NCBI GenBank assembly: GCA_024614665.1 | Contig: GCA_024614665.1_4861.1 | Origin: a phage | Length of the DNA: 64,000 bases | Direction: 5' to 3' (one strand) | Shown: in pieces, positions 49,189 through 64,000 of the stretch | How the letters are laid out: every line of letters starts with the position of its first letter | Position numbering within the stretch: the first letter of the stretch is position 1 | The notes under the pieces: generated by a model | Seen by the model: only the letters and a program-made list of their open reading frames with translations | Databases searched by the model: none | What the model was told of the DNA's origin: nothing | Translations under genes and position numbers: made by a program

Positions 49189-51366
49189 TTATGATAACGA
49201 TTTCTTTGGCCGCTCCCACGGTTTAGGGGCGGATTTGGTATACGGATTACATTCCATCATCTTGCCGAGATACGCATCGTAATACACGAAGCGATCGACA
49301 TAGAACCTCTCCACCGGTGCACTACTGGTAGCCGATTTCACCCGGTTGCGTTCCACAGCGAGGTTAATCGTCCCGGTAGGCGCGGGTTTTAGCGTGAACA
49401 TCACCGCACGGTTGTAACGCCAAGTGTCGTGCACAATATCAAACTCCGATACACTGTGTGCCATGATACCAAACAATGTGGTGCTCGGTAAATTGGCTAC
49501 AGCATCACCGTATGGTGTTCCCACCAAACCGCCGGGTAAGTTTTGCTTTTTGAACAGCGTACCTGAAATAATCGTACCTAAGAACTCCACAACTACAGGC
49601 TTGGTTGGGTCGGTGACTTTATCTATCCCATCCGCACTGGCCAATCTGTTGGCATCTAAATCTGCGAGGTAGTCGAGGAACTCTTGGTACTCGTCGGTGA
49701 CATTCGGTTTCACCGTTCCGACGGATACCCAGTTGACGATACTTTTATTCCCACCGACAGCTTCGCCTGCCATCCCAGGGCGAGTCCATGACATCCCGTC
49801 TTCACGACCGTAGACATAGACTGGCGAGCCGGTAGCCGGGGTGTTCCATTGCTCGAACGCTGTATATCGTCCCGGCTGGCCCCAATCCCCACCCGGACCG
49901 CCATAGTAGCGACTCTGGTAGCCGGTAAATTGTGCGACGACTAACTGGGTAGCACCGCCTTTGTCACGGGACCCAGCTAAGCCGTTACGGTTATTGGTGC
50001 CACTGGGTACCGCCGCGCCTGGCCCGAGTGGCGCACCACCAGCTCCACCGATCTTGGTGGTGCTAAACGCATAGTAGTCGCCCCCACCCCCACCACCGGC
50101 GATGGTGCCGTAGTTTTCGATGGTGACTTTGCCACGGAAGGTATCGCTAATGTGGATTGCGTCAGCTCCGTCCGCTGATGTGTTCGCAGGCAGTGAATAG
50201 ACCATGCCCGAACCACCGCGACCAAGAATGGTTCCCCGGTTAACGAAGTTCCAAACCACCTCGCCAATTTGCGGCAATTCATCGATAACGAACGTCGGTT
50301 TCAGGTTGCTGTCGCGATAAACGAAAGCCCCCGCATCTACGGTCACGTTAACAAACAAACGCCCGCACGCCGCATGGTTGGTCAACGTCGTGGCCCAGTA
50401 GCTGTCCGAAACTTGCGACGTAGTTGTGTAGTTCAGGTTAAGGGTTTGCTCGTTATCTTGATAGCGTGCCACATTCAACGTGGCGTTGCCCATGACTTTG
50501 TACGAACCCTCTACGGGTGCCAATTGCACTTGTCTTGGCCACTCGCCTTCCAGGTTCTCTACAGGAGCAATTTCGTTTACATCAAAAACACCCCGAATGC
50601 CGAGTGTCTCGATGGCCAGAGCATCGTGCAGGCTACCGGTGAAATCATCCGGGACGTATGTGGTTTTGCCTGCATATGTCTCGAGTTTGTTACGTGAGAA
50701 GAACACATACTTCGTTCCAAACATCCCGCTCCCCGGTCTAGCGGTCAAAGCTACGACGCTGTTATACGCAGAGGTTTGGCCTATATCCTCCGGGGACATC
50801 GGGGCACTGACATCGACTTTATCAAGATCCACGATCCGTTTGGTTGCATTAGAGTAGAAGTTAATCCACTGCTGTTTATTCGCAGCCTTTAGCGTGAGAA
50901 TGATGTTGGTAACAGTGTAGACGGTGTTGATATCCACGTCACCGTTTATCACATCTAGCGTTTGGCTGCCGTACCAGATAAGACTTGTCTGTTTCGCCTG
51001 GAACGTGATGCGCGCAGCATTGTTTGTCCAAGTGATGGGCAGGTCTTCAAAGTCGTCGGTTAAAAAGGTAATCCCTAGTAGAGTGTCTAAATGCGGCAAC
51101 AGTTCGTGGATGGACGCACAAGTGGGAATGGCATCCAACTTAACCTTGGCGAAATAATCAGCAATATTTTGCTTCGTGACTTGGGCCGTAATTTGACCGT
51201 AACTTGAATACCCCGGACCCCCTGTCAGTGTGACGTCTAGGGTTTTTTCGTCACGATGCGCCACGGACACCAGGCGTACGTTAGCGGGGTCTACTGCTTT
51301 GGCGACCGCGTTTTTACGGTTGAGCGACCGAATCACGGTCGCCACTAAATCGGGAGTGTATGACAT
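49189..51366 (-). CDS. family-A paralog, long (725 aa), Gly-rich fibre-like protein
   Basis: AAGGTG RBS; Gly-rich tract GGGGGGDYYAFSTTKIGGAGGAPLGPGAAV; C-terminus related to 51381..52700. Confidence 0.65.
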   Translation of the reverse strand: MSYTPDLVATVIRSLNRKNAVAKAVDPANVRLVSVAHRDEKTLDVTLTGGPGYSSYGQITAQVTKQNIADYFAKVKLDAIPTCASIHELLPHLDTLLGITFLTDDFEDLPITWTNNAARITFQAKQTSLIWYGSQTLDVINGDVDINTVYTVTNIILTLKAANKQQWINFYSNATKRIVDLDKVDVSAPMSPEDIGQTSAYNSVVALTARPGSGMFGTKYVFFSRNKLETYAGKTTYVPDDFTGSLHDALAIETLGIRGVFDVNEIAPVENLEGEWPRQVQLAPVEGSYKVMGNATLNVARYQDNEQTLNLNYTTTSQVSDSYWATTLTNHAACGRLFVNVTVDAGAFVYRDSNLKPTFVIDELPQIGEVVWNFVNRGTILGRGGSGMVYSLPANTSADGADAIHISDTFRGKVTIENYGTIAGGGGGGDYYAFSTTKIGGAGGAPLGPGAAVPSGTNNRNGLAGSRDKGGATQLVVAQFTGYQSRYYGGPGGDWGQPGRYTAFEQWNTPATGSPVYVYGREDGMSWTRPGMAGEAVGGNKSIVNWVSVGTVKPNVTDEYQEFLDYLADLDANRLASADGIDKVTDPTKPVVVEFLGTIISGTLFKKQNLPGGLVGTPYGDAVANLPSTTLFGIMAHSVSEFDIVHDTWRYNRAVMFTLKPAPTGTINLAVERNRVKSATSSAPVERFYVDRFVYYDAYLGKMMECNPYTKSAPKPWERPKKSLS

Positions 51367-51380
51367 GGTGACACCTTAGT

Positions 51381-52700
51381 CTATAGCGCTGGATACCAAG
51401 GGACCGGGGCAGTTTTGCTATATGGACTGTAGACCATATAGCCGCCTTTGCTTGGGTCGTAATAGATGAAATAGTTACAGTAATTCGAGTAGAGGCTCGT
51501 CATTTGTTTGGATTGGTATCCGTTACGGTATAGTCCCTGGTAGGTAATAGCCGATGTCGTGGTGGTGTAAGCAGTGTGGTACAGTACCCGACGCCGGTTA
51601 GCAATACTTTCTTGGAACATCTCTTCGGTCGGAAACGCGTGTTGCATCAGCCGTCGAATACTCCCGGTACAGTATCGAGTGCCATACGGGGAACCCGTTA
51701 AATCATCCGTTGTTTCAGGCGATTCTGCCCGAGTCAACACGTACTCGTTTTGATACAGCGTGACGCTCATCGAATTTGAGTTGGTTTCCCGGAACCCCAT
51801 GTAACGCGCATAACGTTCGACGTCCTCTTCCTGCGCCAAATAGGCCACGTTATTTTTCGGACCAAAGTGCAAGAAGAACGGACGGCGGAGATTACCCATA
51901 TCCTCAGGTGGCGTCAACTTCACGCAGTAATTGTACTCCCCACGCATATCCGGGTCTAAGCCTGGGTTGTTATTGCGTGTAGCGACATACCCATAGAGGT
52001 CATACGGGTTATCAGTAGCAGCATTACCGATAGTGAACGGGATGCCCGACCATGCCGACAACGCAGCGATGAACTGGGTCATGTACGAGTTACTGTTTAG
52101 TCGCAGCGGGGTACCCATTGGGATATTGATTATCTGTTGGGTGTACATGCTCCAGTCGAGCCGATAGACCGTGCTGTAAACATCCATGGGTTCCCAAGCC
52201 CCAGTTTCGGTGATGTGGTACATGTCGGCGAAGCTGGGCTCTTCACGAGTAAAGCTAATAGGAATGTAACCCGTGAATGCGGGGTTATCCGATTTAATCG
52301 CCACCGTCCGATCGCCCGTTGCCACAGTGATCATTGCAAACTGGCTGTCAGGATACGTTAAATCGTCAGCAGTAAGCACCAGCCCACAAGCTGCGGAAAT
52401 CCGGTCGATGATGTCGCGGTAGGCCGTCGCCCGATAAGGTACTTTAACCGGTACACTGACGCCTTTAAAATACTGCGAAAGGTTTAAGCGGTCGTAGTAG
52501 ATGTCCATCTTACCGCTGTAACCACCACCCTGTAATCCGTTTACCACGATACGGCTGTTGCGACCATCGCGCAAGGCATTGGTTAAAGGACCTTGTAATA
52601 ACGCCACGTTGGTTGCGTTGAGCGGTTTCTTGAGCTGCGGGTTATCGCGATTAATCTGATCCCAAACCAGTTGCATGACAGGTTTGTTATAGTTGATCAT
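51381..52700 (-). CDS. family-A paralog (439 aa)
   Basis: N-terminal MINYNKPVMQLVWDQINRDNP...RNSRIVVNGLQGGG...DIYYDRLNLSQYF family signature. Confidence 0.65.
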   Translation of the reverse strand: MINYNKPVMQLVWDQINRDNPQLKKPLNATNVALLQGPLTNALRDGRNSRIVVNGLQGGGYSGKMDIYYDRLNLSQYFKGVSVPVKVPYRATAYRDIIDRISAACGLVLTADDLTYPDSQFAMITVATGDRTVAIKSDNPAFTGYIPISFTREEPSFADMYHITETGAWEPMDVYSTVYRLDWSMYTQQIINIPMGTPLRLNSNSYMTQFIAALSAWSGIPFTIGNAATDNPYDLYGYVATRNNNPGLDPDMRGEYNYCVKLTPPEDMGNLRRPFFLHFGPKNNVAYLAQEEDVERYARYMGFRETNSNSMSVTLYQNEYVLTRAESPETTDDLTGSPYGTRYCTGSIRRLMQHAFPTEEMFQESIANRRRVLYHTAYTTTTSAITYQGLYRNGYQSKQMTSLYSNYCNYFIYYDPSKGGYMVYSPYSKTAPVPWYPAL

Positions 52701-63231: not shown

Positions 63232-63252
63232 TCTTACTTCCTTTACTCAGGA

Positions 63253-64000
63253 TTAATCAGGGTCGTTGTAATGCAAATACAAACGCCCGCCAAAATTCAG
63301 ACAGTACAACGACAGCTCCACAATCAGCACGTTGTCGACTGCTGGGTTGGTTGGTAATTCCGCTTTGTTACGCCCGTTATAGACGACGACGGCTTCACGA
63401 AGGTTAAAGTCGATAGGGTTGCGGTACGTTGTCCAGTTATCACCGGTGACCGTTTTGAGAATCTGTGCCAGACGTTCTGTGGTTATCGCAACACCTAGCC
63501 GTTGAAATTCCTCCGCGAAATTATCAAAGCGCCAGGGATACGAATAAACTGCACCTTGACCGACCTTGATGTTGAAATACGGATACTCGTAAGGTGTCAC
63601 TGTTAACGGTTCGAAGTTTGCAGGAAGCAAGGCATCGCCTGGTAACAGCTGTACCTGTTGTTGCCCTATCCAACCTAAAGAAGTGGGCGTGGCAATCAGA
63701 TCCACACGCCATGTCTTCCTGTCGATTTCGGTATTCACCACATCTGCAGGTTTAAGGCTGAGACCGTAATACTGGTTAATTAACCCGACCACGTCATGCA
63801 TCTGGTAAACAGCATCGAGACGTGCAGGAACACGTAAAGGTTGAATCCCGTCCGGATCGGTAAACATGTCTGCGAAGTCAACACGATCGTAATACACGGT
63901 AGTGGCACCGATAGCATTAGCCGTGGCCAATGCCTGAATGCGCACCATCGCGTTGTGACCGTTAGCTTTTGCCAAGTCTTCGTCAGACGTTGGAATCGCA
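63253..64000 (-). CDS. family-A paralog, short, 5' end beyond window
   Basis: frame open to window end; TVYYDRVDFADMF and C-terminal LYLHYNDPD family signatures. Confidence 0.55.
   Translation of the reverse strand, partial: AIPTSDEDLAKANGHNAMVRIQALATANAIGATTVYYDRVDFADMFTDPDGIQPLRVPARLDAVYQMHDVVGLINQYYGLSLKPADVVNTEIDRKTWRVDLIATPTSLGWIGQQQVQLLPGDALLPANFEPLTVTPYEYPYFNIKVGQGAVYSYPWRFDNFAEEFQRLGVAITTERLAQILKTVTGDNWTTYRNPIDFNLREAVVVYNGRNKAELPTNPAVDNVLIVELSLYCLNFGGRLYLHYNDPD

Follow-up and report, generated by a model that had tools for sequence, protein, structure and literature searches.

A 64,000-nucleotide stretch of phage DNA (hereafter the window) ends in an array of paralogous genes, which raises the question of what these genes encode and where on the phage particle their products act. 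A sequence-only reading had counted 13 genes in 49189-64000, sorted them and a short gene nearby into three families (A, B and C) that it did not recognise, and suggested a diversified set of virion surface or receptor-binding proteins.

Identity and organisation of the locus

The window shows ~97% nucleotide identity to the Salmonella jumbo phage SPN3US (Seoulvirus), with gene order and strand conserved. Positions 49189-64000 (minus strand) are orthologous to SPN3US gp140-gp155, and the array proteins are 90-99% identical to their SPN3US orthologues. The array is the SPN3US-type "paralog family B" locus, now Pfam DUF7941, in a Seoulvirus jumbo phage, and has been described previously; the supposedly unfamiliar families are therefore known ones. 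SPN3US paralog family B comprises gp83, gp138-154, gp160 and gp237 (Thomas 2016 PMC5105663, Ali 2017 PMC5694885, Scheuch 2023 PMC10052503); the SPN3US authors consider that no larger paralog family is probably known from any single phage genome. The count of 13 genes was correct, and all gene coordinates in the sequence-only reading are valid ORFs matching annotated genes of SPN3US, SaP7 and EC001. The features of the locus are as follows.

63253..64000, minus strand: short DUF7941 protein, gp140 orthologue; 5' end beyond the window; 99% identical to SPN3US over 240 aa
62320..63231, minus strand: short DUF7941 protein, 303 aa, gp141 orthologue (Pfam PF25613 E 1.8e-84)
61411..62250, minus strand: short DUF7941 protein, 279 aa, gp142 orthologue (BLASTP, own HMM)
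60513..61400, minus strand: short DUF7941 protein, 295 aa, gp143 orthologue (Pfam E 6.3e-82)
59682..60509, minus strand: short DUF7941 protein, 275 aa, gp144 orthologue (Pfam E 2.4e-88)
59658..59677, minus strand: terminator-like G+C-rich hairpin followed by a T run, separating the short-A block from the cassettes
58222..59634, minus strand: A1, 470 aa, gp145 orthologue; DUF7941 N-terminal domain, shared module and tail
57212..58210, minus strand: C1, 332 aa, gp146 orthologue; FN3 domain (~1-78) and shared module
56279..57202, minus strand: B1, 307 aa, gp147 orthologue; FN3-like N-terminus and shared module
54847..56265, minus strand: A2, 472 aa, gp148 orthologue; architecture as A1
53845..54834, minus strand: C2, 329 aa, gp149 orthologue (BLASTP homology)
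52943..53842, minus strand: B2, 299 aa, gp150 orthologue (BLASTP homology)
52836..52931, minus strand: third-cassette relic, the first 32 codons of A3 (gp151), with unrelated sequence thereafter
52720..52745, minus strand: terminator-like two-way hairpin between the cassettes and the 439-aa gene
51381..52700, minus strand: 439-aa protein, gp154 orthologue; full DUF7941 and C-terminal domain (Pfam, PHROG)
49189..51366, minus strand: 725-aa protein, gp155 orthologue (Pfam PF25613 E 3e-23, PF05268 E 4e-18)
45766..46293, minus strand: 175-aa protein, gp160 orthologue; DUF7941 N-terminal domain and a short tail ending NGELDGF

The last gene (63253-63975) is truncated by the window end, and in relatives two further short-A genes extend the array. 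A sigma-70 promoter scan was uninformative (16 sites against 20.9 in shuffled controls), the phage having its own RNA polymerases.

The tandem A-C-B duplication noticed in the sequence is real, with two cassettes present here; the unit is, however, triplicated in SPN3US, SaP7 and Erwinia phage Caitlin. In the present genome the third cassette (gp151-153, ~3.35 kb) has been deleted and the first 32 A3 codons persist at 52931->52836. The predicted variation in copy number among related phages was found when they were compared: several isolates have dropped cassette 3 independently of one another, with material lost at differing junctions, and no phage record has the same exact junction as this genome. 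SPFM phage records with fragmentary, frameshifted matches here were left out as probable assembly errors. Because it has been lost in these isolates, a whole cassette is dispensable in nature. Smaller changes are also seen, with the tail of SPN3US gp148 containing one 26-aa PRPL repeat unit more than that of A2. Between Salmonella and Erwinia phages, cassettes 2 and 3 are 27-38% identical, and cassette 1 is 62-70% identical. We read the array as encoding non-essential, diversifying virion proteins.

Common modules and adhesin-type domains

All-against-all BLASTP bears out the homology of families A, B and C. A1 and A2 share 30% identity over 483 aa (E 6e-58), B1 and B2 42% (E 2e-63), and C1 and C2 38% (E 3e-63). 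The central region of long A matches both B (E 2e-19) and C (E 9e-8), B matches C (E 5e-12), and the first 150 aa of long A are similar to the short A proteins (E 1e-4 to 1e-23). The three homology groups are thus real, but A, B and C are differing combinations of common modules rather than independent families. Our own HMM of the N-terminal domain detects it in 11 window genes and one relic, but nowhere in the first 45 kb of the window. Pfam PF25613 exceeded its curated cut-off of 27 bits in all nine of the N-terminal-domain genes tested (48.7-296.6 bits), and our own HMM picked up the relic and the orthologues of gp142 and gp140. The family-A N-terminal domain is present in the 725-aa and 439-aa genes (49189-52700) as well; gp155 lies outside the published SPN3US family B, yet the domain is found in its orthologue here by Pfam. 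Assignment of the 175-aa protein to family A is upheld by Pfam DUF7941 (E 9.5e-13) and our own HMM, although it has no BLASTP match to the others at E <= 1e-3. B and C are tied to the DUF7941 family solely via the module they have in common with long A, and B2 and C2 match no Pfam family at E <= 0.1.

The members are built to recurring layouts. In the gp141 orthologue an N-terminal domain is followed by a linker and a C-terminal domain, while A1 comprises the DUF7941 N-terminal domain (1-150), a lectin-like module (~155-370) and a repeat tail (373-470), predicted to be disordered, that ends in NGELDGF. The N-terminal domain of A1 has the same fold as that of the phiKZ baseplate protein gp127. 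NGELDGF occurs solely at the C-termini of A1, A2 and the gp160 orthologue; this region, a short motif, can be aligned with the linker that comes after the domain in the short members, with additional coverage from PHROG 2935. From this sequence similarity, the common peptide may be a docking element.

The ~220-aa module common to A, B and C probably adopts a C-type-lectin-like fold. Its probable resemblance to C-type-lectin-fold adhesin domains is at the fold level, and the Foldseek match is not significant. Pfam finds nothing in the isolated modules or in the C-terminal part of the 439-aa protein even at E <= 10, and specifically no Lectin_C, FGE-sulfatase or DUF1566 match in six isolated modules. 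With no Pfam match at this threshold, two GenBank records that name B and C "glycosyl hydrolase" find no support here. A profile search with the module recovers 1780 cluster representatives, and of eight large multi-module proteins scanned, six combine it with Laminin_G_3, Kelch or DUF285 and two have no Pfam match. Further adhesin-type domains accompany the module. Both B and C carry an FN3 domain at the N-terminus, that of C1 having the FN3 beta-sandwich fold. The 725-aa protein consists of the DUF7941 N-terminal domain, a middle region, a glycine-rich T4 gp38-adhesin domain (373-553) and a C-terminal domain, the last shared with the 439-aa protein (residues 614-717 and 334-435, respectively; BLASTP). 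Residues 373-553 match PF05268 with 66.5 bits (cut-off 25) across profile positions 61-214 of 218, contain the motifs GGGGGGDYY, GGAGGAPLGPG and GGPGGDWGQPG, and give weak PDB matches (9v85, E 0.0033; 6f45, E 0.0044). The match begins at profile position 61, and the gp38 N-terminal fibre-tip attachment domain is not present. When a short A protein and B1 were compared by sequence with every PDB chain, nothing meaningful emerged (best E 0.4), and PF12699 (inner-head/ejection proteins, SPN3US paralog family A) matches no array member scanned.

Virion location and proposed function

Mass spectrometry has identified the SPN3US orthologues of all array proteins as virion components (PMC5694885; PMC10052503 Table S2). 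This agrees with the predicted virion presence, and the outcome that would have refuted the sequence-only reading, absence of all of them from virions, is not what is seen. gp141 and gp160 are of high abundance and gp143 of mid abundance in SPN3US virions (PMC10052503 Table S2). By our own calculation from published wild-type spectrum counts (summed), gp145, gp146 and gp147 are roughly equimolar (3.6, 3.6 and 4.8 counts per kDa), and the other two cassettes agree within ~2.6-fold. Total family copies come to very roughly 1,900, by arithmetic that overestimates the sheath ~two-fold.

After two CsCl gradients the array orthologues co-purify with tail-less (tail-tube-mutant) heads, with normalised head/wild-type ratios of 0.9-1.7, compared with 1.39 for the major capsid protein and <0.07 for tail/fibre proteins (PMC10052503 Table S2). 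gp155 likewise remains with tail-less heads (0.89), while one family member, gp237, follows the tail (0.06; PMC10052503 Table S2). The published lists of prohead-protease substrates include none of the array orthologues (PMC5694885; PMC10052503). The surface or receptor-binding interpretation keeps the support of virion presence and adhesin-type domains, but the SPN3US orthologues do not behave like fibres. Nor does the array belong to the fibre gene set. By size, order and literature, the three large ORFs on the plus strand at 25858-38996 correspond to the phiKZ gp131-like fibre genes (SPN3US paralog family C); they lie ~10 kb from the array on the opposite strand, and in SPN3US their orthologues follow the pattern of tail proteins. 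Array proteins have no phiKZ gp131-like match in Pfam or PHROG scans, and membership of that family is rejected.

We are able to propose, with slightly more confidence than doubt, that the array encodes virion-attached adhesive filaments displaying ligand-binding domains, all built to a common design. The DUF7941 N-terminal domain and a short docking segment C-terminal to it would join subunits head-to-tail into flexible filaments or attach them to the particle. This segment would be the linker after the N-terminal domain in full-length members, and the C-terminal ...K-T-x-L-x-x-x-NGELDGF peptide in gp160 and long A. Short proteins (the gp141 and gp160 orthologues) would form the bulk of the filament, and the long A, 439-aa and 725-aa proteins would be the same subunit with a lectin-like module or a gp38-type adhesin as its cargo domain. 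B and C, in which FN3 is combined with the lectin-like module, have no polymerisation domain and probably ride on the A protein of their own cassette. The displayed domains would recognise a ligand on a surface, with host envelope carbohydrate or outer-membrane protein as the likeliest candidates, leading to more or broader initial adsorption. Polymerisation, exposure outside the particle, ligand binding and A-C-B complexes are all steps that we infer. In a more specific version, which we hold to be unlikely, each A-C-B cassette would form a three-chain lectin-like adhesin in which long A plugs into a DUF7941 filament with B and C, and the filaments of Seoulvirus would be anchored to the capsid, not the tail. 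If so, these would be copy-number-variable, recombining head-borne adhesins for first cell contact, and the SPN3US proteomics would be reconciled with the Goslar filament data.

Several observations must be set against adhesive filaments. The SPN3US group reads the family as head proteins, with gp141, gp143 and gp160 as possible ejection proteins, and no external capsid density for array proteins is reported in the literature. Their "Head ejection?" label implies proteins packaged in the capsid, ejected with the DNA and acting inside the cell. All members do co-purify with tail-tube-mutant heads (0.9-1.7), the very roughly 1,900 copies estimated would fit, and SPN3US heads contain much internal protein (PMC7552025). 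Nevertheless, FN3, lectin-like and gp38-adhesin domains typify exposed binding proteins, and the array orthologues are not among the listed prohead-protease substrates, whereas gp53, gp54 and gp47, all known to be internal, are. Furthermore, the phiKZ homologue is located on the baseplate exterior, a Goslar homologue makes long filaments in vitro, and an entire cassette is dispensable in nature. We therefore consider an internal role doubtful. A purely architectural capsid decoration or cement, with paralogs at different lattice positions and no host-binding role, would also account for head association and for many paralogs of differing abundance. FN3 and Ig-like decoration proteins are known on other phage capsids, for example T4 Hoc. 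However, a gp38-type receptor-recognition domain is hard to reconcile with cement, a complete cassette has been lost with viability kept, and long disordered tails and filaments formed in vitro are ill-suited to lattice-bound proteins, making this very unlikely.

The Goslar proposal of a baseplate-anchored "fibre cloud" holds instead that filaments are suspended from the peripheral baseplate and turn up in head preparations through co-purification. Consistent with this, the phiKZ model of the outer baseplate has one gp127 N-terminal domain per lobe where the gp139 band ends, and this is the domain whose fold A1 shares; the Goslar preprint fits a gp126-gp127 dimer into the phiKZ outer-baseplate region (10.64898/2026.04.21.720040); and SPN3US gp237 tracks with the tail (0.06). 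Yet twenty family members, every array orthologue included, are undiminished in particles without tails and baseplates, data that the preprint does not cite, and protein filaments on their own would not be expected to band together with DNA-filled heads in a buoyant-density gradient. For this array we find the proposal quite improbable. Adhesin-type cargo domains, cassettes that vary between isolates and a possible docking peptide tilt the balance towards an exposed binding role. The family makes up a large share of the unexplained virion mass in nucleus-forming jumbo phages, and natural two- and three-cassette isolates of SPN3US-like phages provide ready material for host-range comparisons in phage therapy.

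Comparison with known systems

The A/B/C module probably resembles BPP-1 Mtd, TvpA, the Bdellovibrio Bd2740 tip and the Legionella Lcl C-terminal domain at the level of fold. It has no sequence-level membership of these C-type-lectin-fold adhesins, however, and is roughly double a minimal lectin domain in size. With the gp38 adhesins of the T4 superfamily (T2, T6, S16; PDB 6F45, 9V85) the array shares the glycine-rich receptor-recognition domain, which is recognisable in the 725-aa protein. Here the fibre-tip-attaching N-terminal part is replaced by DUF7941, and an extra C-terminal domain is added. T4-type gp38 sits at the long tail fibre tip, whereas the SPN3US orthologue gp155 is not fibre-associated.

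In phiKZ, gp127 (PDB 9XQD) occupies the outer peripheral baseplate, and sequence identity is only 16%. The 2-3 family members of phiKZ are each present in six copies per baseplate, against ~20 members at tens to hundreds of copies for the array. In Goslar, gp22 forms filaments in vitro by negative stain, and DUF7941 proteins carry carbohydrate-binding, hydrolase or LRR domains (bioRxiv 10.64898/2026.04.21.720040). That preprint and phiKZ cryo-EM place the family at the baseplate as host-recognition filaments, while proteomics of SPN3US tail-less particles points to the head, with ejection suspected; these locations conflict and cannot both be the general rule. Goslar gp22 and gp23 belong to the same Pfam family as the array, and some Goslar members likewise carry extra binding domains; gp22 (abundant, full-length) resembles gp141, and gp23 (abundant, N-terminal domain plus linker) resembles gp160. 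The cargo differs, being lectin-like, FN3 and gp38 domains here and CBM, glycoside hydrolase and LRR domains in Goslar, and the 10 members scattered in Goslar contrast with 11 in the window, plus B and C, in an ordered array with repeated A-C-B cassettes.

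Identity of the array and relationships among its genes

By megablast, 49189-64000 matches SPN3US-like jumbo phages (genus Seoulvirus) from end to end at ~97% identity, and annotated relatives carry an identical minus-strand gene run, named "virion structural protein" or "hypothetical protein". The array is an already known feature, and it is essentially certain that it represents paralog family B of the Salmonella phage SPN3US, the DUF7941 (PF25613) family, a name given in the Goslar preprint (bioRxiv 10.64898/2026.04.21.720040). We mapped window genes to SPN3US genes using RefSeq/GenBank numbering and published tables.

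Genes of the array and of the stretch downstream of it, with SPN3US counterparts
63253->64000, minus, short A, truncated by the window end, gp140
62320-63231, minus, short A, gp141
61411-62250, minus, short A, gp142
60513-61400, minus, short A, gp143
59682-60509, minus, short A, gp144
58222-59634, minus, A1, gp145
57212-58210, minus, C1, gp146
56279-57202, minus, B1, gp147
54847-56265, minus, A2, gp148
53845-54834, minus, C2, gp149
52943-53842, minus, B2, gp150
51381-52700, minus, 439-aa protein, gp154
49189-51366, minus, 725-aa protein, gp155
48493-49146, GH108 endolysin with peptidoglycan-binding domain, downstream of the array
47563-48204, minus, DUF1353 protein, downstream of the array
45766-46293, minus, 175-aa protein, gp160
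45014-45685, plus, DUF4376 protein, downstream of the array

The sequence-only reading had described about 13 paralogous genes in three families, with a tandemly duplicated A-C-B cassette (one long family-A gene, one C and one B). The ORFs match this description, and the array is real and, some corrections aside, correctly described. The homology proposed within the families lies far above chance in all-against-all BLASTP (A1/A2, E 6e-58; B1/B2, E 2e-63; C1/C2, E 3e-63). B (E 2e-19) and C (E 9e-8) also match the central part of the long A proteins, B matches C (E 5e-12), and long-A residues 1-150 match the short A, 439-aa and 725-aa proteins. The 175-aa protein, which had no BLASTP match to other array proteins at E <= 1e-3, was assigned through Pfam DUF7941 (E 9.5e-13) and a custom HMM. 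This HMM, made from the N-terminal domain, was positive for 11 genes and one relic, and negative for the rest of the window.

The short-A block, the cassettes and the gene pair for the 439-aa and 725-aa proteins form three units separated by terminator-like hairpins. Transcription-unit boundaries are marked by strong G+C-rich hairpins carrying T runs (45703-45726, 46915-46945, 49121-49142, 52720-52745 and 59658-59677), several of which can be read in either direction, and 34 terminator-like sites were observed in the region versus 19.7 expected from shuffles.

Several neighbouring genes deserve mention in their own right. Some records label the minus-strand genes at 47563-48204 and 47038-47553 "tail assembly chaperone" and "endolysin"; given the DUF1353 match of the former and the absence of any Pfam match for the latter, these labels look weak. 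The plus-strand gene 46364-46912, flanked by the gp160 orthologue and the lysis-type genes, encodes a 182-aa protein that matches no Pfam family and has a lipoprotein-type signal (…IINLLAGC…). This protein may be an exclusion lipoprotein or a spanin-like one; at 92-96% identity between isolates it is more variable than its neighbours. Radical SAM genes, an odd cargo for a phage structural region, lie just upstream at 41364-44509 (plus; Pfam Radical_SAM in 43181-44509) and are also annotated in SaP7. The true fibre paralogs are three large consecutive ORFs at 25858-38996 (plus; 1234, 1380 and 1742 aa), which by size and order correspond to SPN3US gp170, gp169 and gp168, the phiKZ gp131-like tail-fibre paralog family C.

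Domain composition and proposed modular cargo

In the Pfam scan, DUF7941 covers the short A proteins along their full length and an N-terminal stretch of ~100-165 residues in the long A, 439-aa, 725-aa and 175-aa proteins, and the B and C proteins gave no match. The 439-aa and 725-aa proteins have an additional C-terminal domain in common. Residues 373-553 of the latter form a T4 gp38-adhesin domain (PF05268; 66.5 bits, cut-off 25), whose matches to solved gp38 structures are weak but consistent.

Structures of A1 and C1 were predicted from homologue alignments. C1 (pLDDT 93) begins with a clear FN3 domain. The A1 model has three parts (mean pLDDT 74), with a folded central module at ~155-370 and a disordered tail at 373-470. 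Its fold-level hits include the Legionella Lcl C-terminal domain, a Bdellovibrio fibre tip and Treponema TvpA, as well as Bordetella phage Mtd, an invasin and many NK-cell lectins; they point to a probable lectin-like fold, for which Foldseek gave no significant confirmation. We infer that these lectin hits come from the central module rather than the N-terminal domain, an assignment helped by the Goslar authors' report of no fold matches for DUF7941 itself (bioRxiv 10.64898/2026.04.21.720040).

A profile of the module shared by the long A, B and C proteins, built from six window copies, found 1780 cluster representatives among 1.84 billion proteins. Six of the eight large multi-module proteins scanned add Laminin_G_3, Kelch or DUF285, and the other two had no Pfam match. 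Giant proteins (P0102, 2172 aa; P0104; P0148) contain up to nine copies of the module, and one carries the annotation BspA-family LRR surface protein, from a "Gammaproteobacteria" or "Acholeplasmataceae" MAG. Several multi-module proteins come from contigs 240-275 kb long, possibly jumbo phage genomes that were assigned to bacterial bins.

Loss and divergence of cassettes

Comparison with related phages showed copy-number variation, with cassette losses differing by isolate. SPN3US, SaP7, Proteus phage 7 and Erwinia phage Caitlin have three A-C-B cassettes. The window lacks SPN3US positions 4655-8000 (numbered on locus L001, NC_027402), ~3.35 kb comprising essentially all of gp151-153; of A3, the first 32 codons are kept (52931->52836), and the sequence beyond them is unrelated. 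This deletion junction was absent from every record in the phage collection. In EC001 and Lh1B, A3 is reduced to ~7 codons; SPLA3 has recombined at another position; and SPLA5c has lost A3 and B2, with the break between C3 and C2. SPN3US itself retains, 3' of B3, 29 codons left over from a fourth A-type gene, MGFYSSTALELLCRLIQRDNPQHAGRISWS* (L001 4640-4727, minus; ~ window 52700-52800), so the ancestral array had at least four cassettes. Together, the relics and differing losses indicate that the array has a history of shrinkage and recombination going back some time.

Smaller changes also occur. The disordered tail of A2 lacks one 26-aa unit found between two PRPL repeats of SPN3US gp148, through an in-frame loss of 78 nt (window 55010-55017, codon ~416). 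SPLA5c probably carries the same short form, since its A2 gene has the same length (1419 nt). Salmonella and Erwinia phages share 62-70% identity in cassette 1 but only 27-38% in cassettes 2 and 3, no more than paralogs share with one another. Within Seoulvirus, variability in this region is highest for the gp160, B1, B2 and C1 orthologues, and the gp155-type gene is found in Seoulvirus, CR5 and Phobos only. The GenBank records LR5359xx of SPFM phages 1, 5-10, 12, 14, 15 and 20 give short, scrambled or frameshifted array matches, and other SPFM records are collinear; the odd records probably contain assembly errors in the repetitive array.

Virion location and the filament reading

Every SPN3US family member has been found in virions (PMC5694885). 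The 2023 data on particles of an amber mutant of the tail tube give gp138-155, gp160 and gp83 normalised head/wild-type ratios of 0.9-1.7 in spectrum counts, with the major capsid protein at 1.39 and sheath, tube, baseplate and fibre proteins below 0.07; gp237 is the one family member that follows the tail (PMC10052503 Table S2). Spectrum counts per kDa, scaled to 1560 capsid protein copies, give very rough estimates (the sheath is overestimated ~two-fold) of ~500 copies per virion for gp160, ~400 for gp141, ~180 for gp143 and 20-70 for each cassette protein, with cassette 1 proteins roughly equimolar. The phiKZ atlas models one gp127 per baseplate lobe (PMC13250141).

The main rival explanation is that the array proteins lie inside the head rather than outside it. 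Our preferred reading is that the proteins form adhesive filaments attached to the virion and bearing modular cargo. Its grounds are that the cargo domains belong to exposed, ligand-binding types, that the listed prohead-protease substrates do not include these proteins, that a whole cassette can be dispensed with and has been lost repeatedly, that cassettes diverge fastest between host genera, and that homologues polymerise in vitro and sit on the outer side of the phiKZ baseplate. In Seoulvirus the proteins would most simply be attached to the head, or failing that to some part other than the tail. The Goslar authors propose a baseplate-anchored fibre cloud for host recognition, without citing the tail-less SPN3US data (bioRxiv 10.64898/2026.04.21.720040). 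As a hypothesis, the suggestion from sequence of diversified surface or receptor-binding proteins is reasonable and agrees with this 2026 proposal, but it needs qualifying, as published proteomics place the proteins with the head.

The terminal peptide NGELDGF occurs exactly three times in the six frames of the window, always at a protein C-terminus: in A1 (...DKTPLTSLNGELDGFK), A2 and the gp160 orthologue. The PHROG 2935 profile spans this peptide and the post-domain linker. [quoted passage not shown] By analogy, long A proteins would be cargo-bearing filament subunits, with lectin-like cargo placed after the acceptor domain and ahead of the docking peptide; we read them in this way because of the linker docking predicted in Goslar and because gp160 resembles Goslar gp23, both consisting of the N-terminal domain and linker only.
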